The position numbers were made by a program, and so were the translations under genes. The notes beneath the pieces were generated by a model. The model made no database searches, had not been told where the DNA came from, and saw only the letters and a program-made list of their open reading frames with translations. Positions 25,488 through 57,494 of a stretch of DNA of 62,052 nucleotides are shown piece by piece; within the stretch, counting starts at the first letter, position 1, and every line of letters begins with the position of its first letter. The DNA comes from Clostridium sp. CAG:217 (GTDB taxonomy: Bacteria > Bacillota_I > Bacilli_A > Erysipelotrichales > Erysipelotrichaceae), in contig CAVFKJ010000046.1 in the NCBI GenBank assembly GCA_963623125.1, positions 41,253-103,304 on the forward strand, in the 5' to 3' direction.

Positions 25488-25598
25488 AAAGACAGTTTTC
25501 TAGGGCAGGGTGCGATTCCCGATCGGTGGTATACCCCACGAGCGTAAGCTGAACTTGTGAAATTCAAGTGGCGACAGTAAAGTCTGGATGGAAGGAGA
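25488..25598 (+). promoter_or_regulatory. FMN riboswitch (RFN element)
   Basis: Conserved core AGGGCAGGGTGCGATTCCCGATCGGTGGT...CCACGAGCG...GTGAAATTCAAGTGGCGACAGTAAAGTCTGGATGGAAGGAG. It lies directly upstream of a RibU-like gene. Its 3' end contains the GGAAGGAG Shine-Dalgarno sequence. Confidence 0.9.
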
Positions 25599-25610
25599 TT
25601 TTTTTATTTT

Positions 25611-26204
25611 ATGAAAACTAATTCAACTATTCGTCTTGTTTGTGTAGTGGCCATACTTGGGGCACTAGCTGGTGTTTTGATGTTGCTGGAGTTTCCACTT
25701 CCCATTGCACCACCATTTTACAAAGTTGATTTATCACTTGTGGCACCACTTTTAGCTGGCTATGCGCTAGGGCCTATTGCAGGTATCTTAGTGTGTCTTG
25801 TAAAGGTTTTGATTTCCATTATTCTAAATGGTACAACGACAGCTTTTGTGGGCGAGTTTGCGGCTTTTATCATGGATGGTAGTTTTACTTTATGTGCATG
25901 TCTTATTTATAAGAAGGAACATACTAAAAAGGGTGCCATTAAATCACTTATTTGTGCTACTTTGACTTTAATGCTTGTAGGTGGCCTTACTAATTACTTT
26001 ATTCTAGTGCCAGCTTATGTTAAATTTATGAACATTCCTTTAGAAGCGATTGTTTCAATGGGCAATGCCATATTTAAGAGTGTAAACTCTTTGCTTACAC
26101 TTATCTTATTTTGTACGGTACCGTTTAATTTCTGTAAGGGTGTAATAATCAGTGTTATTACTTACTTGCTTTATAAACGTGTTTCACCAATTCTAAGAGG
26201 ATAA
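25611..26204 (+). CDS. ribU: ECF-type riboflavin transporter S component RibU
   Basis: A 6-TM protein collinear by eye with B. subtilis RibU/YpaA (LMLLEFPLP..., ILVPAY, PFNFCKGVIISV). It sits under FMN riboswitch control. Confidence 0.85.
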   Translation: MKTNSTIRLVCVVAILGALAGVLMLLEFPLPIAPPFYKVDLSLVAPLLAGYALGPIAGILVCLVKVLISIILNGTTTAFVGEFAAFIMDGSFTLCACLIYKKEHTKKGAIKSLICATLTLMLVGGLTNYFILVPAYVKFMNIPLEAIVSMGNAIFKSVNSLLTLILFCTVPFNFCKGVIISVITYLLYKRVSPILRG

Positions 26205-41257: not shown

Positions 41258-42457
41258 TTGATTAATTTTTTTAAAACACATGAATTACCTAGAAGATTAT
41301 TATGCATGATTTTAGTGCTTGGGGTTTTTGTGTTGGGTAGAAATATCATTTTATATAATGTCGATATCGCTTCTTTAGTTGATAATAATAATGCTGAAAA
41401 TATCTTACTTAGTGCTGTAAGTGGTGACTTGAATCGTTATTCTATTTTTGCACTAGGTATTATGCCTTATATGAGCGCTTCTATTCTTGTACAGTTTGTT
41501 TTACTTGTTTTGCCTAAGGAAAGTAAGAAGCGCATTTCTAAAAGTAAGATGGATACCATTTCTTTGATTTTAGCTATCATCTTTTCTTTGTTTTTGGGCT
41601 ACTCAAGAGCTAATGAATTAGTTTATTTAACCAGTCCTTTAAGCAAGCTTGCTTTGATGATTATTTCGATTGTGGAGATGGTGATTGGTTCTTTGATTAT
41701 CATTTTTATTTGTAAGTTTAATAAGGATCATGGTTTGGGTGGGCAAACACCAATTATTTTAATTAATGTAGCTGAAAGCTTTTATACAACCATTAAGGAT
41801 AATTTATATGATATTACGGTTCTTTTGGTTTTGATTTGTTTGGCGGTATTTTTTATTACTTTATTAATCGAAAATGTTGAACTACATATTCCCGTACAAA
41901 GAGTTTCTATCAATAATATGTATGCGGATAAAAACTATATTGCGTTTAAATTAAATCCAATTGGTATTATGCCAGTTATGTTTTCTTCTTCAATCTTTAT
42001 TCTTGTTAAGTATATACTTTATGCCTTGGGTGGCATCTTTGAGGAAGATAAGACTTTGCTTAATATTAATGCGAATATGGATTTGACTAGTAAGATTGGG
42101 GTTAATACTTATCTTATTATTGTTTTCTTATTTACGGTTATCTTTTCTTTTGCGATGTTAGCTCCTAGAGATATGGCTGATAACTTACAAAAAGGTGGAG
42201 ATAGTATTGTGGGCGTTTATGCTGGTAAGCCTACTAGACGTTATTTTTCTTTTGCGATATTAATGCTTTCACTTATTAGTGGGGTTGTGTTGTCTAGTTG
42301 TATGGCTTTGTCTTTATATTTAGCTTTAAATGGTAATTTAACCAGTGAATTAGCGATGCTTCCTTCATCGATTATGATGTTAGTAAGTATCTTTAGTAAT
42401 GTGATAGCTGAAGCTTATAGTTACTATAAGCTTGATATGTATAAATTCTTTATTTAG
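41258..42457 (+). CDS. secY2: Accessory Sec translocase subunit SecY2
   Basis: A 10-TM SecY-like protein of 399 aa (GIMPYMSASILVQF). Position in the aSec locus. TTG start after a GGGAGA RBS. Confidence 0.85.
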   Translation: MINFFKTHELPRRLLCMILVLGVFVLGRNIILYNVDIASLVDNNNAENILLSAVSGDLNRYSIFALGIMPYMSASILVQFVLLVLPKESKKRISKSKMDTISLILAIIFSLFLGYSRANELVYLTSPLSKLALMIISIVEMVIGSLIIIFICKFNKDHGLGGQTPIILINVAESFYTTIKDNLYDITVLLVLICLAVFFITLLIENVELHIPVQRVSINNMYADKNYIAFKLNPIGIMPVMFSSSIFILVKYILYALGGIFEEDKTLLNINANMDLTSKIGVNTYLIIVFLFTVIFSFAMLAPRDMADNLQKGGDSIVGVYAGKPTRRYFSFAILMLSLISGVVLSSCMALSLYLALNGNLTSELAMLPSSIMMLVSIFSNVIAEAYSYYKLDMYKFFI

Positions 42458-42465
42458 GTGAGTGT

Positions 42466-44040
42466 ATGCTTTATTTTATTCCGGCTTGGTATAGTGAAAA
42501 TAGTTTTAAGGAAAATAGCCAACAATGGTATCAAAGAAGACTGCGTTCAGAGGTTGATGATAGTGTTAAACAGCTTCAACTTTTTGATCGTAAGAAGATT
42601 GCTGATACATGTGCTATTGTTTTAAATCATGCACCAAACTATCGTCATTTCTTACATCGTCAGGGTCTTTTAAATAGTAACTATTTTAATGTGTTTGATA
42701 GTATTCAAAATATTAAATCAAAAAAGGCAGCTGTTTTTTCTTATCGTGATTTAAGCTGGCCAGAGGGTATTGATTTTATCTATTCACCATTTTGTATTAT
42801 TGCGTATTTTAAGGGGATTAAATATGCTCAAATAGAATTTGGTGAAGATGGCAATATGATTCTAATTGATATGTTTAAGGATAATGTATTAAGTAGAAGG
42901 AATATTTATGATGATCGTGGTTTTTTAAGTTTAACTATTGTTTATAAAGATGGAAAGATGGTTTATGAACAATATCTAAATGATAAAGGAACTTGGATGA
43001 TTTGTATTTATAGTGATGGTCATGTTTTAGTTAATGAAAAAGAGAATAAATATCTTATTGGCGATAATTATTTTGTTTATTTAAAGAAAGAATATTCTAA
43101 TGTAAGTGATTTAATTAAGGAAGTTTTAACAAGTTACTTGAGCAGTGTTAATAGTTTGGATATTTTTGTGGTAGCTATGCATAAGTTACATAGTTCTTTA
43201 TTACTTGATTGCTTAGGTGATAAAAAAATAATTTTATCTTTATTTAGAGATAGATGTATTGTGGATGATAAGGCTTCTATTAAGTTATGTGATTTAGCTA
43301 AGGCGATTGTAACCGATAGTAAGGATACTTATCATAAAAGTGGCTTGGATAAGCTTGATTGTCAATATAAGATTACGGATATTACACCATTTGATACTAG
43401 AGTTGATTTTGGCATTAGTAGGCAACTTAAACAACAAAATATTCTTTTGTCAGTTGATTTAATAGATGATTGTACTTTTGAAAAGTGTATTGTTATCTTG
43501 ATGAACTATATGCTTAAAAATAAGGACGCTAGAGTTAGCTTATTTACGCGAAATAGTGTCTATGATATAGAAGAGCGTTTATTGTCTAAAGTACGTAATA
43601 TCCTAGCTAAAAATGGCTTTAGTGAAGACTATGCTGTTAATAAGAAGAATATTGTGACTGAGAATAATTTAGATGAAGAACTTCCTTGTCTTTTCTTTGT
43701 TAAACAATGCGTTACCGAACTTAGTTTAAGCAAGTGTCTAAAGGAACAAAGGCTTGTTATTGACTTTGGTGATGAGATTGATTTGTTCTTACAAATTGGT
43801 TCAATTAGTATGGGTATTCCTTTAATTGTTAGTAAAAGAAGTGAATATGTAGAAAATGGTGAAAATGGTTTTGTTTTAGCTAATGTAGATAGATTAAATG
43901 ATGTATTAGTTTATTATCTTGATACTTTGGATAATTGGAATAAGGCAATGATTGCTTCCTATAAGATAGGCAAGAAGTTTTCTAGTGATAATTTAGTTAA
44001 ATGGTGGAAGGGAGTAATAGATTATGTTTTACAAAATTAA
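42466..44040 (+). CDS. asp1: Accessory Sec system protein Asp1
   Basis: Characteristic MLYFIPAWY N-terminus, a size of ~520 aa, and its position after secY2. Confidence 0.8.
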   Translation: MLYFIPAWYSENSFKENSQQWYQRRLRSEVDDSVKQLQLFDRKKIADTCAIVLNHAPNYRHFLHRQGLLNSNYFNVFDSIQNIKSKKAAVFSYRDLSWPEGIDFIYSPFCIIAYFKGIKYAQIEFGEDGNMILIDMFKDNVLSRRNIYDDRGFLSLTIVYKDGKMVYEQYLNDKGTWMICIYSDGHVLVNEKENKYLIGDNYFVYLKKEYSNVSDLIKEVLTSYLSSVNSLDIFVVAMHKLHSSLLLDCLGDKKIILSLFRDRCIVDDKASIKLCDLAKAIVTDSKDTYHKSGLDKLDCQYKITDITPFDTRVDFGISRQLKQQNILLSVDLIDDCTFEKCIVILMNYMLKNKDARVSLFTRNSVYDIEERLLSKVRNILAKNGFSEDYAVNKKNIVTENNLDEELPCLFFVKQCVTELSLSKCLKEQRLVIDFGDEIDLFLQIGSISMGIPLIVSKRSEYVENGENGFVLANVDRLNDVLVYYLDTLDNWNKAMIASYKIGKKFSSDNLVKWWKGVIDYVLQN

Positions 44041-45523
44041 TGTATTACAACTTGGCAAAACCGATTTTAGTAAAATTTATACCATACATGAAGCTGTTAC
44101 ATGGCATTTCGAGAGTGATTTAGAAGATAGTAAACTAAAGTCTTTTGATGTAGTTATTTTGGATCGTAATATTAATGATTCAGAGAGAAAACAATTGTTT
44201 AAGTTAACTAAGGCTTATTGTTTATTTATCTTAGATGATTTTGTATACGAAAAGAATATTTCTTGGTTAATTGAAACTAAAGTAGGGAAGATAATTAATA
44301 AAGATAAACTTAATGTTTTATTAAAAGATGAGATTATTGATTATTTTGGTAAACCCTATGGTGAAAAATTTAGTCCAGTTAATTTAACCGTTAATGATGG
44401 CTTTAAAGGAAAAGTGTCATATGAAGGGTATAATGGCTTAAATTTAAGCGGTGACTTTGGAAGTGATTTTAGACAAATTGCCTATTGGCGAAATAATATT
44501 CCGGTTTTTAAAGGCCAATCAATTGATTTTTGGCTAGAATATGAAAAAAGTAGTGATGTAAGTATTAAATTATCAATTGTCCAGTTTGTATCTGGTTCTT
44601 TAAGTACTATTTTAAATAGTTGGCTTTTTGATGAAGAGGATATGAAAGAAATTGTTTATATCACTAATAATAAGGCTACTGGTCCTGTTTTTGTATCTAT
44701 TTTAGCTAAAGGAAAAGGCGATTTAAAAATAATTGCCTTACATGATCGCTATTCACGAAGAGGTAAGGGTAACTTTCTTGTGGGTGGTCAAAGAGCGGTT
44801 ACAAGTAAAAGAGAGGAGATTTTCTTTTACTTTGATCCAGGGGATAAAAAACCACCTTTAAATGTTTACTTTTCTGGTTATAAGACCCAAGAGGGCTTTG
44901 AGGGCTACAACATGATGCGTAAGATGGGTTCACCATTCTTACTTATAAGCGAGTCAAGACTTGAAGGTGGCGCTTTCTATTTGGGTGATGAAGAATATGA
45001 GAAGATGATGGTTGATGGAATTAAGTGTTATTTAGATAAGCTTGGTTTTTCTAATAAACAAATGATTATGTCTGGCCTTTCAATGGGTACTTTTGGGGCT
45101 ATGTATTATGCGTGTGACTTTAATCCTTTTGCGGTAGTACTTGGTAAGCCTTTATGTAATTTAGGTGATGTCGCAAACAATGAGCGTATCAATCGTCCTT
45201 ATGCTTTCCCTACTTCCTTGGATGTACTATATAAGCAATATGGTAATCTAGATGATTTTGATAAATTAAATAAGCGTTTTTGGGATAAGTTTGATAAGGC
45301 TTGTTTTGATGATATCAAGTTTGTTGTTTCTTATATGATTGAAGATGACTATGATTGTAATGCCTATAATGATTTATTGTCACATATTAATAATGATTCT
45401 ATTGAAGTATATGGCAAAGGCATTCATGGCCGTCATAATGATAATACAGCTGGTATTGTTGGTTGGTTTGTTGGCCAATACTATAATTTATTAAATGGTT
45501 TCTTTAATAGGAGATTAAGATGA
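44024..45523 (+). CDS. asp2: Accessory Sec system protein Asp2 (esterase/acetyltransferase fold)
   Basis: N-terminal VLQLGK. The Ser-hydrolase nucleophile motif GLSMG sits in the C-terminal half. Its position fits the locus. Confidence 0.8.
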   Translation: MFYKINVLQLGKTDFSKIYTIHEAVTWHFESDLEDSKLKSFDVVILDRNINDSERKQLFKLTKAYCLFILDDFVYEKNISWLIETKVGKIINKDKLNVLLKDEIIDYFGKPYGEKFSPVNLTVNDGFKGKVSYEGYNGLNLSGDFGSDFRQIAYWRNNIPVFKGQSIDFWLEYEKSSDVSIKLSIVQFVSGSLSTILNSWLFDEEDMKEIVYITNNKATGPVFVSILAKGKGDLKIIALHDRYSRRGKGNFLVGGQRAVTSKREEIFFYFDPGDKKPPLNVYFSGYKTQEGFEGYNMMRKMGSPFLLISESRLEGGAFYLGDEEYEKMMVDGIKCYLDKLGFSNKQMIMSGLSMGTFGAMYYACDFNPFAVVLGKPLCNLGDVANNERINRPYAFPTSLDVLYKQYGNLDDFDKLNKRFWDKFDKACFDDIKFVVSYMIEDDYDCNAYNDLLSHINNDSIEVYGKGIHGRHNDNTAGIVGWFVGQYYNLLNGFFNRRLR

Positions 45524-45957
45524 ATACTTGGAATATATATTGGAATGATTATTCTTTTAATTCTTATTTATATGGTTCAAAGATTGAATTTGATAAAAAA
45601 GATGTTAAGTTTTCAAATAGTTTAATGTCGCCTGGTTCAATTATTAAGACTTGGTATTCTAAGGTAAAATTTCAAGAAAAGAGAGTTGAACCAACTTTGC
45701 CGATGATTGATGGTGAAAACAGTTATAATTTAAGTAGAGATATTGAGTGTTTGAATAAAGAAGATATAATCATTCGCATTGTCTTTTTTGATCGATATGA
45801 AAATGAAGTTGATAGTTTGATAATTAGAGAAGAGAGTGTTGACTTTACTTGTCCAATTAAGACTTATAGTTATCAAATTGAACTTATTAATGGTGGAAAA
45901 TGTGACTTTGTTTTCCATAAGTTAGTGTTAAAAGAGTATGAGGGCAAACAAATTTAA
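45520..45957 (+). CDS. asp3: Accessory Sec system protein Asp3
   Basis: A 145-aa protein between asp2 and secA2, with overlapping starts and stops. Confidence 0.7.
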   Translation: MNTWNIYWNDYSFNSYLYGSKIEFDKKDVKFSNSLMSPGSIIKTWYSKVKFQEKRVEPTLPMIDGENSYNLSRDIECLNKEDIIIRIVFFDRYENEVDSLIIREESVDFTCPIKTYSYQIELINGGKCDFVFHKLVLKEYEGKQI

Positions 45958-48253
45958 TAAGGATGTTAGAAGAATAAGGGAACTTGAGAGTCTTTATGAG
46001 AAGTTAAATGATAAAGAAATCAAAGAAAAGACTATTGAGTTTAAAAAGCGTTACCAAAAGGGTGAAAGCCTCGACTTTTTAATGTGTGAGGCTTATGGTG
46101 TTTGTATTGAAGCTTGTAAGCGTGTTTTAAAACAAAGGCCTTATGATGTACAAATTATGGGGGCCATTGGTTTACATAAGGGTTTGCTTGTAGAGATGAA
46201 TACTGGTGAGGGTAAGACTTTAACGGCCGTTATGCCTTTATATTTAAATGCTTTAAGTGGCAAAAGTTCTATCCTTGTTACAGCTAATGGTTATTTGGCG
46301 TATCGTGATGGAATACAAATGGGCGAGGTCTATAAGTTTCTGGGCTTAACTTGTAGGGCTGGTGTTAGTGAAACTGACGATAAACAGTTAAGCAATGAAG
46401 AGAAAAAGGAAATATATAGTGCGGATATTGTTTATACAACCCATGGTACTTTAGGTTTTGATTATTTACTTAATAATTTGGTTAGTAAAAAAGAAGATCG
46501 TTTTCTTTGCGATTTTAATTATGTCATTATTGATGAAGCGGATTTAGTTTTACTTGATGCAGCTCAAATGCCTTTAGTTATCTCTGGGGCACCTAGAGTT
46601 ACTAGTAATTTATATAAGATATGTGATTTCTTTGTTAGAACGCTTAAGGAAGATATTGATTATGAAGTTGAGGATAATCAAATTTGGCTTACTAAAAAAG
46701 GTGTTAAGTATGCCGAAGAGTTCTTTGGGATAAAGGGATATTACGAAAGTAGTAACTTTGAGATTAATCGTCATGTGACCTTGGCTTTAAGGGCACATTA
46801 TCTAATGGAAAAGGGCAAGGATTATGTTGTGTCTGATAAAAATGAGATTGTTTTAATGGATAATGGTTCAGGTAGAACGGCTCCGGGTATGAAACTCAGG
46901 GGTGGTCAACATCAGGCTATTGAGATGAAGGAAAAGATTAATGTTTCAAATGAAAATAGATCAGTAGCTAGTATTACTTATCAAAACTTCTTCCTTTTAT
47001 TTCCTAAATTATCAGGCATGTCAGGTACTATTGCGGATGCCAAGAAGGAATTAAAGAGAGTCTACAACAAGGATGTCATGATTATTCCGCCTAATCGTAA
47101 ATTAAGAAGGGTGGATAATCCAGATTTATATTTTAAAGATAGTAAGTCCCAACATAAGGCAGCTATTGAGGATATTTTAAGAAGACATAAAAATGGCCAA
47201 CCTGTTTTAATTGTTACTTCGACAATTGAAGATAGTGAGGCTATTTCAAGAGTCTTAGTTAAAAATAAGATTCCTCATAATGTCTTAAATGCCAATAGTG
47301 CTTATTATGAGGCGCAAATAATTAAGGAAGCTGGTAAAAGAAATGCTGTTACTGTTTCTACAGGCATGGCTGGAAGAGGCACGGATATTAGACTTGAAAA
47401 GGGTGTTAAAAGTTTAGGTGGTTTGGCTATTATTGGCATTGGTCGAATGGATAACATTCGTCTTGAAAGGCAAGTTAGAGGCAGAAGCGGTAGACAAGGT
47501 GATCCAGGTGTTAGTCAATTTTATGTTTCTTTAGAAGATGGTGTAGTAGAGAATAGTCTTGGTGAAGATAAGGTTGAATACTTACTTAATAAAAAGCATA
47601 TCCCTTTATATAAATTAAAAAGATATATTGATGGCAGTAGAAGATTAAATGAAGACAATGGTTTTTCTAGTAGAGAGAGTGCTGTTGAATTCGATAAGGT
47701 AATGAAGGTTCAAAGAAATATTTTCTATGAGGCTAGAAATAGACTTCTTGATGGTGATAGCTTAGATAATAATGTTTTAAAGAAGGTTATTAATGAGAAT
47801 ATTAATAACTTTGTTAGAAAGAATAAATTAAATAAACAAAGTTTAAATCGTTTTGTTTTGGATAATATGTCCTATACTAATGATTTTGATTCTAATTTTA
47901 AGTTTTATACTTCTTTTAAGGTAAAAAGAGCTTTAAAGAAATATGCTAAAGAGCTTTTTGAAGATAAGATTGATTCTTTCTCTGATGAACAATTAAAAGA
48001 GTTTGTACGTTTATGTACACTACAAGCTATGGATAATGCTTGGATTGAGGAAGTAGACTATTTAGGGCAGTTACAGTATGTTATGGCGGGCAGGCAATCG
48101 GCTTTAAGAAATCCGATTTTTGAGTATCGTAATGAGGCTTATGAGGCTTTTAAGATAATGCAAAACAATGTTAAGAAAGACTTGATGCGTAATTTCTTAT
48201 TAGGTGAGGCAAGTTTTGATGAAGATGGGCATATGCTTATAATGTTCCCATAG
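45938..48253 (+). CDS. secA2: Accessory Sec translocase ATPase SecA2
   Basis: SecA motifs MNTGEGKTLTA, IIDEADLVLLD and TGMAGRGTDI. It is shorter than SecA1 (771 aa) and lacks the C-terminal zinc-binding tail. Confidence 0.9.
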   Translation: MRANKFNKDVRRIRELESLYEKLNDKEIKEKTIEFKKRYQKGESLDFLMCEAYGVCIEACKRVLKQRPYDVQIMGAIGLHKGLLVEMNTGEGKTLTAVMPLYLNALSGKSSILVTANGYLAYRDGIQMGEVYKFLGLTCRAGVSETDDKQLSNEEKKEIYSADIVYTTHGTLGFDYLLNNLVSKKEDRFLCDFNYVIIDEADLVLLDAAQMPLVISGAPRVTSNLYKICDFFVRTLKEDIDYEVEDNQIWLTKKGVKYAEEFFGIKGYYESSNFEINRHVTLALRAHYLMEKGKDYVVSDKNEIVLMDNGSGRTAPGMKLRGGQHQAIEMKEKINVSNENRSVASITYQNFFLLFPKLSGMSGTIADAKKELKRVYNKDVMIIPPNRKLRRVDNPDLYFKDSKSQHKAAIEDILRRHKNGQPVLIVTSTIEDSEAISRVLVKNKIPHNVLNANSAYYEAQIIKEAGKRNAVTVSTGMAGRGTDIRLEKGVKSLGGLAIIGIGRMDNIRLERQVRGRSGRQGDPGVSQFYVSLEDGVVENSLGEDKVEYLLNKKHIPLYKLKRYIDGSRRLNEDNGFSSRESAVEFDKVMKVQRNIFYEARNRLLDGDSLDNNVLKKVINENINNFVRKNKLNKQSLNRFVLDNMSYTNDFDSNFKFYTSFKVKRALKKYAKELFEDKIDSFSDEQLKEFVRLCTLQAMDNAWIEEVDYLGQLQYVMAGRQSALRNPIFEYRNEAYEAFKIMQNNVKKDLMRNFLLGEASFDEDGHMLIMFP

Positions 48254-48263
48254 AAAGGAAAGT

Positions 48264-49754
48264 ATGATATATAACATTAATTTAGGAATTGGTTGGGCAA
48301 GTAGTGGTGTTGAGTATGCTCAAAGTTATAGGGCTAGTGCTTTTAGAAATCTAGGGGTAGAAAGTAAATTTATTTTTACCGATATGATTACTTATGAACA
48401 TATTGAGCATATGACGAGAAATATCGGTTTTTTAGATAGTGAAGTTATTTGGCTTTATATGTATTTTACTGATTTTAAAATGACGCCCGTTACTTACACT
48501 GACGAAGACTTAGTTAAGACTTTTTCTTCCCTTGTTTATACTTATAAAAGAGAGGGTAAGATTGGTCGTTATACTTTTGAGGGTAATGGCAATTTTTATA
48601 CCGTTTACTATACTAATGAAAGTGATAATTTAATTCATCGAGTAGAGATTGTTTCTAATGGCTTTTTAATTAGAAAAGATTATTTTACTTATGCCCGTTT
48701 ATTTTCCGAATATTATGCACCACTTGATAATAAAGCTCATCTATATTTGAGAAGATTCTTTAATGAAGATGGCAGTGTAGCTTATGAAGAGGTTAATGAT
48801 GATGATAAGGTGATGTATCAATTTAAGGATCAAATTATTACTTCTAAGGAAGAGTTTGTAGCTTACTTTATCAAGTGTCTTAAATTGAAGGACGATGATG
48901 TGGTGATTGTTGATAGAACTACTGGTATTGGCCAAGCAGTTTTTATGGCCGCTAGTAATGCTCGAATTGGTATTGTGATTCATGCCGACCACTTTTCGGT
49001 TGGTAGCACTAATGATGATTATATTCTTTGGAATAATTATTATGAGTATCCTTTTATGATGCATAAGCATATCGCTTTCTATATTTGTGCAACACAGGGT
49101 CAAAGCGATTTATTTAAAGCTCAATTTGAAAAATATGTAGGTGTTACGCCTACTGTTTATACAATTCCAGTTGGTAGTTTAGATAAACTAAGATATCCAA
49201 AGAGTGAAAGAAGACCATATTCTATTATTACAGCTAGTAGACTCGCCAGTGAAAAGCATATCGATTGGCTAGTTGAGGCTGTGGCGATAGCTAAAAAAGA
49301 AGTAAAGGAACTTACTTTAGATATCTATGGTAAGGGTGGTGAAGAAGAACTTATTAGAAAGAAGATTGATGAATATAAGGCTAATGATTATATTCATTTA
49401 ATGGGTCAACAAAATCTTAAGGAAGTTTATCAAAATTATGAACTTTATTTAGCCGCTTCAACAAGTGAAGGTTTTGGTTTAACCCTAATGGAGGCAGTTG
49501 GAGGAGGACTTCCAATTGTGGGTTTTGATGTAAGATATGGTAATCCAACTTTTATTGATGATGGTGAAAATGGTTATCTAATTAAATATGATGAGAATGA
49601 TAGTATTAAAAATAAAGTAAATGATTTAGCTAAGGCGATTGTTAAAGTATTTAAGGAGGCTGATTTAGCTAAGTTTCATGAGCATTCTTATCTTGTGGCA
49701 AGTAAGTTTTTAAGCAGTGAAGTGGAAAGAAAGTGGGCAGAGGTAGTCAAATGA
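48264..49754 (+). CDS. gtfA: Accessory Sec glycosyltransferase GtfA
   Basis: MIYNINLGIGWASSGVEYAQSYRA N-terminus and the GT4 motif EGFGLTLMEA. Confidence 0.9.
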   Translation: MIYNINLGIGWASSGVEYAQSYRASAFRNLGVESKFIFTDMITYEHIEHMTRNIGFLDSEVIWLYMYFTDFKMTPVTYTDEDLVKTFSSLVYTYKREGKIGRYTFEGNGNFYTVYYTNESDNLIHRVEIVSNGFLIRKDYFTYARLFSEYYAPLDNKAHLYLRRFFNEDGSVAYEEVNDDDKVMYQFKDQIITSKEEFVAYFIKCLKLKDDDVVIVDRTTGIGQAVFMAASNARIGIVIHADHFSVGSTNDDYILWNNYYEYPFMMHKHIAFYICATQGQSDLFKAQFEKYVGVTPTVYTIPVGSLDKLRYPKSERRPYSIITASRLASEKHIDWLVEAVAIAKKEVKELTLDIYGKGGEEELIRKKIDEYKANDYIHLMGQQNLKEVYQNYELYLAASTSEGFGLTLMEAVGGGLPIVGFDVRYGNPTFIDDGENGYLIKYDENDSIKNKVNDLAKAIVKVFKEADLAKFHEHSYLVASKFLSSEVERKWAEVVK

Positions 49755-51079
49755 GCGATGTTCTTTTGTTAGATAATTTTAATGAAGATAGTATTATGCT
49801 TCATGAATCTTTTAAAGCTGCAGGCTTTAATGGTAAGACAATAGTGGTAGATGATAGTGGCTTTTTACCAGATGATGTCATTAGTTTATATCGCTTTTTC
49901 TGTGGCGCTTTTAAAAAAGGCAAGCCTCGTTATTTTAATCAAATTGATTTACCCGATTATTGGGAGATAGAAGCTAATAATACTTCTGGTAAGATTACTA
50001 ATTTATTTAGAAAAAGAGGCAGTATTTACTTTACTCTTCCTTTAAATAATCGTTTAGTAAGTAATGTTGATTGGTATGATGAAGAGGGTGTTGTTAGAAG
50101 TAGCGATCATTATGATGCGAATGGTTTTCTTTATGCTCGTACTACTTTTAATAAAAAGGGCGAAAGAGTTTGCAAGTCATATTATGATGAGGATAATAGA
50201 GAGATAATAGTTGAAAACTTTGTTACAAGAGATATTATTTTAAATTATGATGGTAAAGTATTTATCTTTAAAAATAAGGTAGATATGATAAAGAGATTGT
50301 TCGAATCAGGTAATATTAAATATGATCGCATTTTCTATAATTCTTTATCTACGCCTTTCTTTGTCTCGGAGTCTTTAAGTAGTATTGAAAAGAAGGATAT
50401 TCTTTTTTGGCAAGAGAATAAAAGAAATGATGTTCCAGGTAATATGCAAGTTATTCTAAGTGGTAATGCTTCGCGTACTAATTTAATTTATGTACAAAAA
50501 AGAGCTAGTTATGATAAATTGATGGAACTTACTAATAATAGTGATATTATTAAGCCTCTTGGCTATGTATATAACTTTGCAAAGCAAAACAAACATACCA
50601 ATAAGGCTTTAATTTGTACTAATTCTGATCAAATTGAACAATTAGAGTACCTGGTAAATAATTTGAAGGATGTTGAATTTCATATTGTGGCCATTACGGA
50701 GATGTCTAGTAAGCTTCTTAGTATGGGCAAGTATGACAATGTTCGTTTATATCCTGGGGCAAAGAGTTCAATTATTGAAGATTTGTTTGATGAGTGTGAC
50801 TTTTATTTAGATATCAATTATGCCAATGAGATTGTGGATTCTTTAAAAAGAGCTTTCTTACACAATCAATTGATATTGGCTTTTGAAAATACTGTTCATA
50901 ATCGTACTTATATTTGTGATAATCATATATGTAATAGTGGTGATAAAATGGTACAATTATTAAAACAAGTTATGGTTGATTATTCTTTGTTAGATGAACA
51001 TTTAAGTTTGCAAAGAAAAAAGGCCATGAGTGAAGATGTGAGTGCTTATGAGAATATTTTAAATTTGTGGGAGGTATAA
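49751..51079 (+). CDS. gtfB: Accessory Sec glycosylation chaperone GtfB
   Basis: ATGA overlap with gtfA, a size of ~440 aa, and its position. The track start at 49733 is an upstream GTG. Confidence 0.8.
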   Translation: MSDVLLLDNFNEDSIMLHESFKAAGFNGKTIVVDDSGFLPDDVISLYRFFCGAFKKGKPRYFNQIDLPDYWEIEANNTSGKITNLFRKRGSIYFTLPLNNRLVSNVDWYDEEGVVRSSDHYDANGFLYARTTFNKKGERVCKSYYDEDNREIIVENFVTRDIILNYDGKVFIFKNKVDMIKRLFESGNIKYDRIFYNSLSTPFFVSESLSSIEKKDILFWQENKRNDVPGNMQVILSGNASRTNLIYVQKRASYDKLMELTNNSDIIKPLGYVYNFAKQNKHTNKALICTNSDQIEQLEYLVNNLKDVEFHIVAITEMSSKLLSMGKYDNVRLYPGAKSSIIEDLFDECDFYLDINYANEIVDSLKRAFLHNQLILAFENTVHNRTYICDNHICNSGDKMVQLLKQVMVDYSLLDEHLSLQRKKAMSEDVSAYENILNLWEV

Positions 51080-51080
51080 A

Positions 51081-51272
51081 ATGTTTATTGGAAGTGCTAG
51101 TGGTGTTAGTTTAACGACGATTATTATTATTTTGGAACTTATTCTTTTGATTGATAGTGTAGCTTTAGTTATTCAATCTAAGGGTAAGGTAGTAAAGATT
51201 GTTAATGCGATATTAGCTGTTGCATGGCTAGTATGTATTATTGGCAATCTAGTTAATTTTGGAATTAAATAG
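51081..51272 (+). CDS. Small 2-TM membrane protein at the position occupied by asp4/asp5 in streptococcal aSec loci
   Basis: A 63-aa ORF starting 2 nt after the gtfB stop, with two hydrophobic helices. A hairpin with a T-run lies downstream. Confidence 0.4.
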   Translation: MFIGSASGVSLTTIIIILELILLIDSVALVIQSKGKVVKIVNAILAVAWLVCIIGNLVNFGIK

Positions 51273-51338
51273 TTAATCATTTTATTAGCTATTAAAGAGT
51301 ATTACCGGAGATATTTTTATCTTCGTTTTTTTAATATA

Positions 51339-52232
51339 ATGAATAATATGAGATGTCGCTTTTTTAAAATAGCCATAGTTTTAATATTGTTGATAAACGG
51401 TTTTGGTTGTGAAAAGAAAGTGGAGAATAAAGAGAGTCATAGTTATACTTTTGATGAAATATTATGGTGTTCTAGTGGTGATTTAGATTATGAGGATGAT
51501 AAAGTCTTAGTTGACTATTCTAATACTAATGAGGGCTATATCATGGCTAAAAGTAAGACTAGTGATCATAATCGTATCAAGATTATGCTTATTAAGGATG
51601 AAGAGAAGTATACTTATGATTTAAATAAGGATTTAGAGTTTGAGACTTATCCTTTAAATATGGGAAGTGGTACTTATACTATTAAAGTATATGAGAATAT
51701 AAATGATGATGAATATGGCCTATTATATTCATTTGATATAGATGTTAGTTTAGATAGTGAGTTTATACCTTTTTTATATCCTAATCAAATAGTTGATTAT
51801 AATAGTAGTACAAAGTGCATTGAAAAATCTTTTGAATTAGTTAAGGATGACAAAACTGATTTAGATAGAGTCGATCATATTTATCATTGGGTTTTAGATA
51901 ATGTAACCTATGATTGGGATAAGGTGGAAGAGGTACAGGGCAAGTATGTTTTGCCTATACTTGATGATATTTATGATGAAGGCAAGGGAATTTGTTTTGA
52001 CTATGCCGCTATTATGGCAGCTATGCTTAGAGTACAACACATTCCTACGAAGGTTGTAACAGGTATGGTATCAGAAGGTTATCATGCTTGGATTGAGGTT
52101 TATATTGAAAATATGGGCTGGATTAAGCCACATGTTTATTTTAATTCAGGAGAGTGGACCCAAATGGATCCAACTTATGATGCGATGGATAGAGAATATA
52201 ATGGCGATTATAGTATTAAATATACTTATTAG
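51339..52232 (+). CDS. Transglutaminase-like cysteine protease-fold protein, secreted or lipoprotein
   Basis: Signal peptide ending in INGFGC, which may be a lipobox. Catalytic-core pattern GKGICFDYAA...GYHAWIEVY...MDPT (Cys-His-Asp). Confidence 0.7.
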   Translation: MNNMRCRFFKIAIVLILLINGFGCEKKVENKESHSYTFDEILWCSSGDLDYEDDKVLVDYSNTNEGYIMAKSKTSDHNRIKIMLIKDEEKYTYDLNKDLEFETYPLNMGSGTYTIKVYENINDDEYGLLYSFDIDVSLDSEFIPFLYPNQIVDYNSSTKCIEKSFELVKDDKTDLDRVDHIYHWVLDNVTYDWDKVEEVQGKYVLPILDDIYDEGKGICFDYAAIMAAMLRVQHIPTKVVTGMVSEGYHAWIEVYIENMGWIKPHVYFNSGEWTQMDPTYDAMDREYNGDYSIKYTY

Positions 52233-52241
52233 GAGGCAAGC

Positions 52242-53270
52242 ATGAAGAATATTACAGAACTTGAGAAGGCACAATTTTTAAAGCAGATGGGTATGATTTT
52301 GGATAGTGGTTTATCTTTGGCTGATGGACTTGAGGCAATTGAGGGTCAAGTTGAGGATAAGGATTATGCTAGGGTTTTAAATAAGGCTAAGGAGAGCGTT
52401 AAACAAGGCGATACTTTTTCGAGTGCTTTAGATAAAACGGGTGTTTTTGATTCTTATATGATTAATATGCTTAGGGTTGGTGAAGAAAGCGGCTATCTTG
52501 ATAAGGTAGTAAAACAACTTTCAAGTTACTATTATCGTATGCATGATACTAGAAATAGAATTAAGGATGCCTTAAGTTATCCAACTATTTTGGTTGTGAT
52601 GATGTTAGTAGTAGTTATCATTTTAATCAATAATGTGCTTCCTTTATTTAAGATGGTGCTAGCTAATATGGGCATGGAAGTATCTAATACAGCTACGGTG
52701 ATGCTTGATATTGGTAAGAATTTAGCTATTATTGCCTTGGTAATAATATTCATCTTATTTGTAATTTTTATTTATACATTAATTTCTTTAAGGGGAAAAG
52801 ATTATAGTTATATAACATTATTACAAAAGTTTTTTATGACGAGAAAGTTTGCCAATGAATTGTCAGTTGTACAATTTGCCTATGGTTTATCTCTTTTATT
52901 AAGTAGTGGCATTAGTCAAATTGATGCCTTAAAACAAAGTAGTGAAATGTGTAATGATAAAGAATTAAAGAAGAGAATTGATAAGCTTATTGAAGATATT
53001 AATTCGGATAAGAGTATGTCCGATTGCATTATCGATAGTCATATCTTTAAGGAAATCTATAATCGTATGTTAGTGATTGGTTTAAAGAGTGGCCATTTTG
53101 AGGAGACCATGCACGAAGTAGCTTTGGCTTATGAAAACGATATTGATGAAAATATTAATAAGATGCTTGATGTTATTGAGCCAAGCCTTGTGGTTATTCT
53201 TTCAATTATTGTTGGTATTATTATTGTTTCGGTTATGCTTCCACTGGGTAGTATATTGGTGAATTTATGA
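52242..53270 (+). CDS. GspF/PilC/ComGB-family platform protein
   Basis: Two GspF-type repeats (LDSGLSLADGLEAI... and LLSSGISQIDALKQS...) and three TM segments in 342 aa. Confidence 0.75.
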   Translation: MKNITELEKAQFLKQMGMILDSGLSLADGLEAIEGQVEDKDYARVLNKAKESVKQGDTFSSALDKTGVFDSYMINMLRVGEESGYLDKVVKQLSSYYYRMHDTRNRIKDALSYPTILVVMMLVVVIILINNVLPLFKMVLANMGMEVSNTATVMLDIGKNLAIIALVIIFILFVIFIYTLISLRGKDYSYITLLQKFFMTRKFANELSVVQFAYGLSLLLSSGISQIDALKQSSEMCNDKELKKRIDKLIEDINSDKSMSDCIIDSHIFKEIYNRMLVIGLKSGHFEETMHEVALAYENDIDENINKMLDVIEPSLVVILSIIVGIIIVSVMLPLGSILVNL

Positions 53271-53563
53271 GAAAGTCGCAGATTTTAATTTTTATCTTAA
53301 GTATTGTCATCATGGCTTTGATTACTTCGGCTATCTTTAAAAGTGAGACTTACTATAAAGATAATCAACTAGATACAATTGAAGAAAGTATTCGTAAGGC
53401 TTTAGTAACCTGTTATGTTAGTGAGGGCTTTTATCCTGGTTCGCTTGATTATTTAAAACAAAATTATGGTTTGGTAATAAGTGATAAAGTTAACATCTTT
53501 TATCAAGCTGTTGGTAGTAATATCTTTCCAGACTTTATGGCTAGTTATAAGGAGAAACAATGA
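53267..53563 (+). CDS. Small N-terminally anchored protein (98 aa), pseudopilin/assembly-factor candidate
   Basis: MRKSQ followed by a single hydrophobic helix, with no Gly before the helix. ATGA overlap with the platform gene. Confidence 0.45.
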   Translation: MRKSQILIFILSIVIMALITSAIFKSETYYKDNQLDTIEESIRKALVTCYVSEGFYPGSLDYLKQNYGLVISDKVNIFYQAVGSNIFPDFMASYKEKQ

Positions 53564-53982
53564 AACACTCTAGTATTGCTCAAATTGGTTTTTCTTTGAT
53601 TATCTTTCTAATGTTTGTCTTTGGCAGTTTCTTTATGCTTTATTATGGTTCTAATGCCTATAAAAATGGTCTTGATAGCGAAGTTGAAAGAGAGGATATG
53701 CAGATTCCTTATGCTTATCTTTCAACTAAAATCTATATGGCCAAAAGTAAAGATAACATAACAATTAAGGATAATAGTTTAATCATTGATAATGATGGTT
53801 CTTTTACTTGTATCTATTTTAAAGACAATGGTTTATATGAACTAGTAGTAAAGGATGTTTCTTTAATTGATTATGCTGGTGGAAGTAAGATTTGTAATCT
53901 AGATTCTTTTAGTATTAGTCAAGAAGATAATTTATATACTATTAAATTTAATGATGTAAGTTTTAAGGTGGGTAAGCTATGA
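53560..53982 (+). CDS. Small N-terminally anchored protein (140 aa) with a degenerate prepilin-like leader
   Basis: MKHSSIAQIG|FSLIIFLMFV has Gly at -1 and Phe at +1 but Ile instead of Glu at +5. Overlaps the upstream gene by 4 nt. Confidence 0.45.
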   Translation: MKHSSIAQIGFSLIIFLMFVFGSFFMLYYGSNAYKNGLDSEVEREDMQIPYAYLSTKIYMAKSKDNITIKDNSLIIDNDGSFTCIYFKDNGLYELVVKDVSLIDYAGGSKICNLDSFSISQEDNLYTIKFNDVSFKVGKL

Positions 53983-54302
53983 AAAATACACATTCTTTTA
54001 ATTTTTTATTAGAAATTCTTATTTCCATTATCTTTTTTACTATTTGTTCAATGGTGTTTGTGGGCTTGTTTTATTTATCTAATAGAATGAATAAAGAGGC
54101 TTTGATTAAGTCTGAGTCTTTGGTTGAGGTAGAGTCAATTTACGAAGAGTTTAAGGCTAGTGGTAAATGTGAGGATTATACAGGTGATGATTTTATTGTT
54201 ACAACTAATATAGAAGATAATGTTTGTCATATTAAGGCAATAAGTGATAATAAGGTTCTTATTGAAGTAGATTCTATTTACTTGGGTGAAGCATATGAAT
54301 AA
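53979..54302 (+). CDS. Small N-terminally anchored protein (107 aa), the most pilin-like leader in the operon
   Basis: MKNTHSFNFLLEILISIIFF resembles K-G-F-T-L-L-E-x-L-I but has Ser for Gly and one extra residue before the Glu. Overlaps the upstream gene by 4 nt. Confidence 0.45.
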   Translation: MKNTHSFNFLLEILISIIFFTICSMVFVGLFYLSNRMNKEALIKSESLVEVESIYEEFKASGKCEDYTGDDFIVTTNIEDNVCHIKAISDNKVLIEVDSIYLGEAYE

Positions 54303-54696
54303 AAGAAGAAATAGTATCGGCGTTGGTTTATGTAGTCTTCTTATGATTTTTACTTGTCTTTGTCTTACTATTTTTGTCACCTTATCTTATCTACAGGCTA
54401 AGAGAAACCTTAATGATTCAAATAAGATTGTTGATTCTATTACTGATTATTATGAAGCTGATAATAAGGCTAGTCAGTTAGTTTTAGATTTAAAGGATAA
54501 TTATAATGATGAGTCCTTTTTAAATGAAAACAATATTGAATATAATAATGGAGTATATTGTTTTAGTATGGCTATTTCAAATAACAAGTATCTTGACGTG
54601 GAACTTAGTTTTGATCAAGATAAGCTAATTGTATATAAGTGGCAAGAAGTGTCTAAGGCAAGTGGCGAATATGATTATTCAGGTTTTGTGAACTAG
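54286..54696 (+). CDS. Small N-terminally anchored protein (136 aa), pseudopilin candidate
   Basis: MKHMNKRRNSIG|VGLCSLLMIF has a basic N-terminus, a Gly, then a hydrophobic helix with no Glu5. Overlaps the upstream gene by 17 nt. Confidence 0.45.
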   Translation: MKHMNKRRNSIGVGLCSLLMIFTCLCLTIFVTLSYLQAKRNLNDSNKIVDSITDYYEADNKASQLVLDLKDNYNDESFLNENNIEYNNGVYCFSMAISNNKYLDVELSFDQDKLIVYKWQEVSKASGEYDYSGFVN

Positions 54697-54704
54697 GAGA
54701 TTTT

Positions 54705-55763
54705 ATGGATATTAGAGAGATTTTAGAGTATGCGGTAAATAAGGAAGCTAGTGATATTTTTATTGTCGCTGGTACACAGATTGCGTATAAGATTAATGGT
54801 TCAATTGAGACGGTTGACGATGTTAGCCTTAAGCCGGATGATACTTATGATTTAGTAAAACAAATTTATGAAATTAGTAATAATACTAATGATATAGATA
54901 GATTAAAGGAAGATGATTTTTCTTTTTCTTTAAAAGATGTTGGACGTTTTAGAGTAAATATTTATCGTCAAAGAGGTTCTTTGGCAGCGGTACTTAGAGT
55001 TGTGCGTTTTACTTTACCCGATCCTAGCAAGCTTCATATATTACCTAGCATTTTAGATTTAGCCAAATTAACAAAGGGTTTAATCTTGGTTACTGGTAGT
55101 GCTGGCAGTGGCAAGTCTACAACTTTGGCTTGCATTGTAGATGAGATTAATAAAACGAGGAATGCCCATATTATCACTATTGAAGATCCAATTGAATATC
55201 TTCATAAGCATAATAAGTCTATTGTTTCTCAGCGTGAAATAGGTCATGATACTGATGATTATTTAAACGCTTTGCGTGCCGCTTTAAGAGAAGCACCTGA
55301 TGTGATTCTTGTGGGGGAGATGCGTGATTTAGAGACGGTAAGTGTGGCTCTTACAGCGGCTGAGACAGGGCACTTAGTATTAAGTACGCTTCATACTTCA
55401 GGGGCAAGTGATACGATTAGTAGAATTATTGATATTTTCCCTCCTGCCCAACAGGAACAAATTCGTATTCAATTAACAATGACTTTACAAGCGGTTATTT
55501 CTCAACAGCTTATCAAGGGAAAAGATGGCAAGATGTATCCAAGTTATGAAGTTATGAAGACTTGTCCAGCTATTTGTTCGCAAATTAGGGATAATAAGCT
55601 TCATCTTATCAACAATACAATTATGCTTAATCGTAACAATGGCATGATTACTAACGATGATAGTGTTTATGAATTATATAAGAAGGGTTTGATTGATAAG
55701 GAGAGTGCTTTAACCCATTCTTCGAATATGGAGGCAATGGCTAGTAAACTTAATCATTTTTGA
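54705..55763 (+). CDS. pilT: PilT-family (twitching-motility/retraction-type) secretion ATPase
   Basis: Collinear by eye with P. aeruginosa PilT: ASDIFI, DFSFSL..GRFRVN, Walker A GSAGSGKSTTLA, ITIEDPIEY, ALRAALREAPDVILVGEMRDLET and TAAETGHLVLSTLHT. It has no PilB-type N-terminal extension or tetracysteine motif. Confidence 0.85.
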   Translation: MDIREILEYAVNKEASDIFIVAGTQIAYKINGSIETVDDVSLKPDDTYDLVKQIYEISNNTNDIDRLKEDDFSFSLKDVGRFRVNIYRQRGSLAAVLRVVRFTLPDPSKLHILPSILDLAKLTKGLILVTGSAGSGKSTTLACIVDEINKTRNAHIITIEDPIEYLHKHNKSIVSQREIGHDTDDYLNALRAALREAPDVILVGEMRDLETVSVALTAAETGHLVLSTLHTSGASDTISRIIDIFPPAQQEQIRIQLTMTLQAVISQQLIKGKDGKMYPSYEVMKTCPAICSQIRDNKLHLINNTIMLNRNNGMITNDDSVYELYKKGLIDKESALTHSSNMEAMASKLNHF

Positions 55764-57460: not shown

Positions 57461-57494
57461 GGACCGTGATTTTCACGGTCCACGTTTTATTTTG
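57461..57494. terminator. Bidirectional terminator
   Basis: ggaccgtga-ttt-tcacggtcc perfect hairpin followed by a T-rich run, between convergent genes. Confidence 0.75.

Follow-up and report, generated by a model that had tools for sequence, protein, structure and literature searches.

A block of seven genes was analyzed in a 62,052-nucleotide stretch of Clostridium sp. CAG:217 DNA (contig CAVFKJ010000046.1), which we refer to as the window. The block begins with a gene for a transglutaminase-like lipoprotein (TG), continues with genes for a platform protein (F) and four small proteins (s1–s4), and ends with a gene for an ATPase (T); a regulator gene (R) follows it in the window (Table 1). 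The central finding is that the platform, the PilT-clade ATPase, the four co-translated bitopic proteins and the extracytoplasmic Cys-His-Asp enzyme are inherited as one selected unit. The open reading frames (ORFs) reported in the initial annotation of this DNA are all present with the coordinates, lengths and junctions given there. The junctions of the window ORFs from TG to T are a gap of 9 nt, four overlaps (4, 4, 4 and 17 nt) and a final gap of 8 nt.

The distribution of the block was traced by a one-genome-per-species scan with a 6-sequence alignment of F, which gave at least 449 confirmed F relatives. The best 80 of these were used for the family survey, ORFs were called in all loci, and an iterated hidden Markov model (HMM) was built for each gene. 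These best 80 relatives come from Erysipelotrichaceae (including Anaerorhabdus furcosa, Faecalicoccus acidiformans, Bulleidia and Longicatena), Lachnospiraceae (including Eubacterium ramulus, Lactonifactor longoviformis, Dorea, Butyrivibrio and Anaerolentibacter) and Oscillospiraceae (Youxingia). The order TG-F-s1-s2-s3-s4-T is found in 62 of about 85 loci, as is the joint presence of a T2SSE-family ATPase and a GspF/PilC platform, and the recurrence of the same order across three bacterial families places the arrangement far beyond chance. All contexts fetched for F relatives at 53%, 45%, 33%, 28% and 24% identity contain the same block, in the order Transglut_core/DUF553, T2SSF, an ORF of ~100 aa, DUF4860, two small ORFs and T2SSE. 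In every lineage the genes overlap or follow one another closely, a sign that the subunits are expressed at similar levels, without one abundant major pilin. TG stands immediately 5′ of F in nearly every complete locus, and the co-occurrence of the block with the transglutaminase-like gene, raised in the initial annotation as a point to check across genomes, is thus borne out. T is missing in 20 loci, and in ~16 of them, mainly from Butyrivibrio and other rumen Lachnospiraceae, the downstream sequence suffices to show its absence within 10 kb. No close relatives of F were found on plasmids.

Selection on the individual genes was estimated as the ratio of nonsynonymous to synonymous substitution rates (dN/dS) against the 89% identical locus L009. 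The values are 0.05 for T, 0.07 for s1, 0.08 for F, 0.11 for TG, 0.21–0.25 for s2–s4 and 0.29 for R. All eight genes, R included, are under purifying selection. Taken with the gene order shared by so many loci, these values (0.05–0.29) dispose of the concern that the block might be unique to this strain. Three loci labelled Paratractidigestivibacter, Duodenibacillus and Bifidobacteriaceae (L013, L015, L016) contain blocks 51–57% identical to the low-GC Firmicute block, and the taxon labels of this “cleanbin” series of metagenome-assembled genomes look unreliable.

Table 1 Genes and transcription signals of the block and its borders (positions in the window; SARP, Streptomyces antibiotic regulatory protein; HTH, helix-turn-helix; AF2, AlphaFold2).
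Feature	Position	Strand	Evidence or remark
Terminator-like hairpin with T-run	51306..51325	+	3′ end of upstream accessory Sec (aSec) operon; 13 nt to TG start codon
TG, putative lipoprotein, transglutaminase-like (papain-fold), 297 aa	51339..52232	+	Pfam Transglut_core, DUF553
F, GspF/PilC-type inner-membrane platform, 342 aa	52242..53270	+	Two T2SSF domains
s1, bitopic, 98 aa	53267..53563	+	AF2 lollipop; no Pfam model
s2, DUF4860 protein, 140 aa	53560..53982	+	Pfam DUF4860; AF2 model
s3, pilin-type N-terminus, 107 aa	53979..54302	+	Orthologue alignment
s4, 136 aa, probably 133 aa from ATG 54295	54286..54696	+	Orthologue alignment, start-site evidence
T, PilT-family hexameric ATPase, 352 aa	54705..55763	+	TIGR01420
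R, SARP-type regulator, 372 aa	55786..56904	+	Winged HTH, BTAD and degenerate GGDEF-like C-terminus
Putative lipoprotein, 165 aa	56957..57454	+	Same strand, before next terminator; outside conserved block
Bidirectional terminator-like hairpin	57461..57481		Likely 3′ end of transcription unit

By every sequence comparison made, T is a true member of the PilT/PilU family. It scores 415.9 bits against the NCBIfam model TIGR01420 (PilT/PilU; cut-off 319.1), with residues 3–341 of 352 covered. Scores against the other models are 138 for ComGA (cut-off 300), 118–131 for GspE and PilB (cut-offs >600), 149–170 for DotB/TraJ (cut-offs 368–463) and 50 for the TadA family (cut-off 373). Among solved structures, T matches Aquifex PilT over its full length (2gsz, E = 3e-93); other PilT and PilU structures come next (235–278 bits), and PilB and GspE match over the ATPase core only (~93 bits). 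T has three Cys and lacks both the tetracysteine motif and the PilB-type N-terminal domain. Walker A, Asp box, Walker B and His box are kept across 60 T orthologues, as is the PilT C-terminal signature (consensus pAIRnmIRdnK; PAICSQIRDNK in the window). Profile, closest solved structures and signature motif therefore agree on PilT, and the initial annotation, which had read the ATPase as PilT-like without a tetracysteine motif and had called for its HMM classification against ComGA, PilB and GspE, was correct on this point. The PilT family is likewise the best match for all 29 T orthologues scanned (29/29). T is, as the initial annotation had it, the sole ATPase of the block, and none of 89 loci has a second T2SSE ATPase or a second platform within 10 kb. 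As expected of the PilT family, T may power filament retraction.

The platform F has two T2SSF domains (Pfam E = 1.5e-48) and is without the N-terminal ~60 residues of GspF. Its NCBIfam scores (GspF 200 bits, PilC 161, ComGB 132 with a cut-off of 240) all fall under the cut-offs, which leaves F an unclassified platform. TG matches Transglut_core (E = 2e-21, 76.7 bits against a threshold of 23) and also DUF553 in Pfam. The catalytic triad Cys219, His249 and Asp277 is invariant in 80/80 orthologues, most of which have a lipobox, and the best solved relative is 3isr, annotated as “putative cysteine protease”. TG was considered as a substitute for a prepilin peptidase and rejected. With its lipobox or signal anchor TG is extracytoplasmic, while the leaders of s1–s4 are basic and should face the cytoplasm, and an enzyme on the opposite side of the membrane cannot stand in for the peptidase. 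The alignments of s1–s4 contain no invariant Lys or Gln, so cross-linking of subunits by TG is without sequence support, and hydrolysis on the wall or on the subunit heads is the more economical guess for its role.

The four small proteins resemble pilins in shape and, for two of them, in the logic of their N-termini. s1, the most constrained small subunit, belongs to a family of 1657 clusters at 90% identity. Its AF2 model (predicted local distance difference test score (pLDDT) 87) consists of a helix over residues 2–53, a helix over 60–67 and two strands in a beta hairpin. The top Foldseek match in the PDB is the Thermus pilin PilA4 at a non-significant E = 0.59. s1 has no class III leader, with neither Gly at −1 nor Glu at +5 (Glu5). 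Contrary to the statement that this 98-aa protein has no Gly at all, Gly occurs at residues 54, 58, 68 and 83 and is absent only from the first 53 residues. An invariant extracytoplasmic motif, CY-x-x-EG-x-YP, includes a near-invariant Cys (Cys49 in the window). Most Lachnospiraceae s1 proteins start with M-x-x-R-F (Arg3 and Phe4 in ≥90%), a conserved cytoplasmic peptide to which a cytoplasmic partner might dock; the window s1 lacks it and begins with MRKSQ.

s2 is a DUF4860 protein (PF16152, 41.7 bits against a Pfam threshold of 25), and its orthologues were annotated as PF16152 in every context examined. The family has 849 representatives at 50% clustering. Its AF2 model (pLDDT 93.3) shows a 57-residue helix (residues 4–60) followed by an eight-strand beta head, for which Foldseek returned no significant fold match and no pilin match in the PDB. 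Asp or Glu stands at the start of the helix in 76/82 orthologues, and in the window the residue is Gln, with no Glu5; the N-terminus of the window clade is G↓FSLII (arrow, boundary between −1 and +1). Two tandem DUF4860 stretches are present in P0303 (336 aa) and P0365 (243 aa), so the head domain can be duplicated. The apparent DUF4860 repeats of a further candidate, the giant protein P0373, are probably spurious matches, as this is a cadherin/RTX protein.

s3 has a pilin-type N-terminus, with the consensus S-[RK]-S-[SG]↓L-F-L-M-E-L-I-I-A-I-L-F-F in 81 orthologues. Glu5 is present in 80/81, Phe at +2 in 71/81 and Leu at +3 in 80/81. At position −1, 31 of the 81 have Ser, 18 have Gly and 11 have Phe, with Phe, Leu and Tyr together accounting for 22. 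The window protein had been read as having Ser in place of Gly and a Glu shifted by one residue. Alignment with 80 orthologues instead puts the Glu at +5 and Phe7 at −1. s4 has a basic leader and a Gly invariant in 81/81 orthologues, followed by a hydrophobic helix without Glu5 and with Phe at +8 in 80/81. In the window this Gly is G14 (GVG↓L) rather than G12 (IG↓VGLCS), the leader Gly proposed earlier. Cys residues recur inside the transmembrane (TM) helices, at +20 in s3 (63/81) and at +12 after the invariant Gly in s4 (59/81). The window s4 has Cys27 at this position, and the window s3 has Phe at its own. It is possible that the conserved Cys of s1, s3 and s4 serve inter-subunit contacts or acylation. 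Most s1, s2 and s3 sequences are without a cleavable Gly at −1.

Direct ties between these proteins and curated pilins were sought by several routes. Pfam scans of s1, s3 and s4 members gave no family and no pilin match, and s1–s4 profiles gave nothing significant against PDB sequences. All NCBIfam pilin models stayed far under their cut-offs, and the sub-threshold matches were mostly to ComGC–GG, PilV, PpdD and Gsp pseudopilin models. s3 matched PilV, ComGF, ComGE and PpdD-like models, s2 matched ComGF and ComGE, and s1 matched ComGC. The best pilin-model match of all was that of s4 to ComGG (3/25 members, best 4e-5). The s1 and s3 families align with each other (hhalign probability 90%). Against the single E. 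coli GspG, GspH and GspI sequences hhalign probabilities were <5%, though the acidic residues align with Glu5. The modeling proposed in the initial annotation as a search for a pilin fold thus gave the predicted pilin-like lollipop of helix and beta head for s1 and s2, but no significant Foldseek match. We conclude that s1–s4 have a pilin-like architecture, that s3 and s4 also follow pilin N-terminal logic, and that membership in the pilin family is not demonstrated.

On the usual view, a type IV filament machine requires four parts (assembly ATPase, platform, prepilin peptidase and major pilin), and PilT serves only as the retraction motor. That the operon contains no canonical prepilin, peptidase or PilM/N/O genes was noted earlier and stands after our screens of the window and loci. 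None of the reading frames of the 62-kb window encodes a canonical G↓[FM][TS]LxE prepilin, and none of 89 loci has one within 10 kb; a motif and hydropathy screen (rather than an HMM search) of the same regions found no multi-TM GxGDxK protein that could be a prepilin peptidase. Multi-TM proteins encoded in the window comprise a YitT-family protein, a Mem_trans transporter, the S-component of an energy-coupling factor (ECF) transporter, and SecY2. No A24 peptidase is present among the Pfam-annotated locus contexts. Judged by the criteria of PMC6916266 for type IVa pili, the block and its annotated flanks lack PilM/N/O, an extension ATPase of the PilB type and a major pilin whose α1N is canonical, and no assembly ATPase (PilB, GspE, ComGA, TadA) lies within 10 kb in the 89 loci. 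The canonical s3 leaders (18/81) and the invariant s4 Gly point to cleavage by a prepilin peptidase, one that is never encoded in cis.

Regulatory genes recur next to the block in several forms. R combines a winged HTH and BTAD with a C-terminal degenerate GGDEF-like domain in which NDNEF replaces GGDEF, and it lies directly 3′ of T in 23 loci, all from the Erysipelotrichaceae-type group. A BTAD regulator is found upstream on the divergent strand in several Lachnospiraceae loci. In 18 loci a GGDEF-domain membrane protein, its motif often degenerate (GGNEF, GGNKF), is encoded just 5′ of TG. Several Lachnospiraceae have a same-strand trio before the block, made up of a degenerate GGDEF-like membrane protein, a sigma factor of the extracytoplasmic function type and an anti-sigma-like membrane protein whose outer domain is rich in beta structure (L084 6963–8977, L067 6741–8958, L074 6940–8978, L088 7074–8937 and L058 6990–8989; motifs GGNKF, GGNEF, GSNDF). 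Butyrivibrio has a GGDEF-like gene 4 nt from TG and a single-domain response regulator after s4. Around the block, in the window and in four further loci, no riboswitch comes up to the Rfam gathering score, c-di-GMP classes included. A link to cyclic di-GMP (c-di-GMP)-type signaling is plausible.

Good Shine-Dalgarno sequences precede F, s2, s3 and T in the window; TG has no recognizable one in the window sequence. Between the hairpin and TG, 13 nt are too few for a sigma-70 promoter; in this strain TG may depend on transcripts reading through from the aSec operon or on an unusual start. The s4 ORF of 136 aa described earlier is present, but its GTG start at 54286 is probably not the one used. 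ATG 54295 has a GGGTGA Shine-Dalgarno and yields the orthologue-type N-terminus MNKR, a 133-aa protein and an 8-nt overlap with s3. The agreement of the Shine-Dalgarno and the orthologue N-termini makes this the more likely start. The 165-aa lipoprotein gene downstream of R has no family match and a homologue only in L009.

The initial annotation suggested one surface-structure island made up of the block, the aSec adhesin locus and R. Flanking genes vary from lineage to lineage, and the window and L009 are the only loci with aSec genes beside the block, so the island reading is unsupported; the SARP regulator alone holds up as a recurrent partner, within Erysipelotrichaceae (the 23 loci above). 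The aSec locus itself is real. Genes from 41258 to 51079 encode SecY2, Asp1, Asp2, a 145-aa ORF at the Asp3 position, SecA2 and two ORFs at the GtfA/GtfB positions; the putative Asp3, GtfA and GtfB identities are assigned by gene position alone. Between the last of these genes and the terminator lies a very hydrophobic 63-aa ORF (51081–51272) with an L009 homologue (E = 1e-30) and no family match. The apparent substrate is a 1538-aa protein (36577–41193; 27% Ser, no Pfam match) with a long aSec-type signal peptide. Its C-terminus has a hydrophobic segment, then a Lys/Asp-rich tail and no LPXTG motif, so it seems to be membrane-anchored rather than sortase-anchored. Just 5′ of this serine-rich adhesin gene, a 990-aa hybrid histidine kinase is encoded (33022–35994; about seven TM segments, HisKA, HATPase_c and a receiver). 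Elsewhere in the window, a flavin mononucleotide riboswitch (25492–25603, 95 bits) lies directly 5′ of the ECF-transporter S-component gene (25611–26204), which is probably part of a riboflavin importer.

We interpret the block as a distinct branch of the type IV filament superfamily that makes a short pseudopilus or piston with a PilT-type motor and a cysteine enzyme, a reading to which we give about an even chance. By analogy with known systems, s1–s4 would form a short helical stub of about one turn and no long fiber; as the block encodes neither a major pilin nor an assembly ATPase, this is the simplest model. The stub would sit on the platform F, with its subunits mostly uncleaved in this lineage, and the PilT hexamer would turn the platform, pulling the stub down or cycling it. 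PilT could be a disassembly-only motor on a self-assembling complex or a bidirectional motor. An engine with PilT alone is less implausible in light of the requirement for PilT in MSHA pilus extension in Vibrio cholerae (PMC9815625) and of the account of CpaF alone driving both directions in Tad pili that is given in PMC11300603. TG would act distally, on either the wall or the subunits, and so let the device operate through a thick monoderm wall. A dedicated regulator of the SARP or sigma type, in many cases coupled to degenerate GGDEF domains, would control expression. A stronger version of this proposal, an autonomous machine in which PilT is the sole motor, the largely uncleaved four-subunit stub self-assembles on its dedicated platform and TG opens or remodels the monoderm wall, is possible but doubtful.

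Several points weigh against the piston reading. No significant profile or fold match ties s1–s4 to solved or curated pilins. The 18 of 81 s3 proteins with a canonical Gly-1/Glu5 leader, together with the invariant Gly of s4, suggest cleavage by a peptidase. The ~16 loci without T within 10 kb imply that the motor can be encoded elsewhere. Known PilT proteins retract filaments built by another ATPase (PMC6916266). As to autonomy, related Erysipelotrichales have a separate canonical comGA–GG operon that may bring a peptidase (PMC12786226). Expression, the filament and the activity of TG are themselves predictions from sequence.

Much of this evidence also suits a different account, in which the block would serve a canonical type IV pilus or Com system encoded elsewhere in the genome as an accessory module. 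It would contribute a second platform, minor pilins for priming or for the tip, a retraction motor and a tip enzyme, while a PilB/ComGA-type ATPase, a prepilin peptidase and a major pilin would be supplied in trans. The parts match the set of minor pilins, PilY1-like factor and PilT of type IVa pili (T4aP). Cleavable leaders in s3 and s4 without a peptidase in cis, tolerance of a T encoded in trans, the comG operon elsewhere in Erysipelotrichales (PMC12786226) and the normal restriction of PilT to retraction (PMC6916266) all fit as well. We nonetheless consider the accessory module unlikely. The block has its own platform, of a clade confined to it, and a canonical system already has one. The block moves as a unit between contexts and never lies beside pilB, pilD or pilA in the 89 loci, and the general lack of a cleavable Gly-1 in s1, s2 and s3 argues in the same direction. 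Two Lachnospiraceae in a 2011 survey, which are not established carriers of the block, had Tad and no pil or com operon (PMC3244431). Quite improbable, in our estimation, is a non-filament device in which s1–s4 are fixed partners like PilN, PilO, GspL and GspM that couple the platform and PilT to TG, forming an ATP-driven switch or exporter by which a wall-acting cysteine hydrolase is activated or positioned. It would account for the lack of significant pilin matches, for N-termini that mostly look uncleavable and for the position of TG as the best-conserved partner apart from the motor. The conserved M-x-x-R-F start of most Lachnospiraceae s1 proteins also speaks for it, as it recalls the PilM-binding peptide of PilN. 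However, Glu5 of s3, the acidic helix start of s2 and the invariant Gly of s4 are pilin hallmarks foreign to PilN, PilO and GspM, and the predicted continuous helix of >50 residues running into a small beta head is the shape of a pilin rather than of a TM segment with a coiled coil and a ferredoxin-like fold. The weak profile matches also favor pilin models, with GspM/T2SSM appearing only as single matches (E = 0.02–0.1).

Two further explanations have next to no probability in our view. The initial annotation had named an ordinary ComG competence pseudopilus operon, here much diverged, as a case that would refute its reading. The sizes of the small gene products (98, 140, 107 and 136 aa) are reminiscent of the Bacillus subtilis ComG pilins, F resembles ComGB in being short, and the best weak matches are to ComGC, GE, GF and GG models, though the small ORFs reach these only below threshold. 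The profile scores refute this case, with the ATPase at 416 bits for PilT against 138 for ComGA (cut-off 300) and F at 132 against the ComGB cut-off of 240. In addition, the ATPase gene comes last and TG first, no ComGC-type leader is present, and related Erysipelotrichales have their canonical comGA–GG locus separately (PMC12786226). A decaying or silent remnant of a pilus locus might be suspected from the degenerate class III leaders and from TG lacking a visible promoter or Shine-Dalgarno. The ORFs, however, are intact in hundreds of species, dN/dS is 0.05–0.29 throughout, and the catalytic residues of TG and T are invariant.

The significance of the block lies in its joint inheritance across hundreds of species and in no fewer than 1657 protein clusters, with a platform, PilT alone and mostly uncleavable pilin-like proteins. 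Its carriers are abundant gut and rumen bacteria, and pilin finders built on canonical leaders would miss s1–s4. The constant partnership with TG bears on how such filaments cross the thick Gram-positive wall. If the machine is autonomous, a PilT-type motor can be the sole engine, and the block would offer a small, tractable system for the question of motor direction. It might then also be a trans-wall conduit, e.g., for taking up DNA or delivering surface proteins, in Clostridia and Erysipelotrichia of the gut, among them species without ComG or T4aP genes.

Among known systems, ComG of Bacillota is similar to the block in being monoderm, without a secretin, with a platform that is short and with four to five small proteins in a row, each with a single N-terminal helix. 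The last small protein has Gly and no Glu5, as in ComGG, and the sub-threshold matches of s1–s4 are mostly to ComG models. The block differs in that its motor is of the PilT clade, its ATPase gene is last and not first, TG is an integral first gene, no ComGC-type major pilin or canonical leader is encoded, and the gene order is not GA-GB-GC-GD-GE-GF-GG. Monoderm T4aP (Streptococcus sanguinis, Clostridium perfringens, C. difficile) share with it a PilT with an AIRNxIRE-type signature, a PilC-type platform and minor pilins, and in Clostridia they are tied to c-di-GMP signaling. In contrast to T4aP, the block has no PilB/PilF, PilM/N/O, PilD or major pilin in cis, and its pilin-like proteins fall short of all pilin profiles.

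A further parallel is with the minor-pilin quartets GspH-I-J-K, FimU-PilV-W-X with PilY1, and ComGD–GG, which also consist of four co-transcribed small subunits, one of them without Glu5. Minor pilin quartets of the type II secretion system (T2SS), T4aP and Com form a one-turn tip or priming complex, sometimes with a non-pilin tip protein (PilY1), and by analogy TG may be comparable with such a tip protein. Known quartets, however, cap a major-pilin filament built by an assembly ATPase, neither of which is in the block, and share no significant sequence or fold similarity with s1–s4. The two systems that lend a PilT-only engine some plausibility also differ from it: CpaF in Tad is of the TadA clade and works with a TadB/TadC platform pair and the Flp pilin, whereas the block has a PilT-clade motor and a single two-domain platform, and MSHA keeps its own extension ATPase, MshE, beside PilT. 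DotB and TraJ, from type IVB secretion and plasmid transfer, are, like T, PilT-related hexameric ATPases outside classical retraction; no type IV secretion genes were found near the block.

In the superfamily survey of Denise et al., PilT appears only as a retraction paralogue within T4aP-type systems, and Imam et al. found pilT only inside pil operons containing pilB. Our literature searches returned no paper mentioning DUF4860/PF16152 and none describing an operon of PilT, platform and transglutaminase. By their defining features the block is not ComG, T4aP, T2SS or Tad, and it does belong with the PilT family, the T2SSF platforms, DUF4860 and the transglutaminase-like superfamily. On both grounds, the block appears to be a previously undescribed part list that is clearly descended from the type IV filament superfamily.

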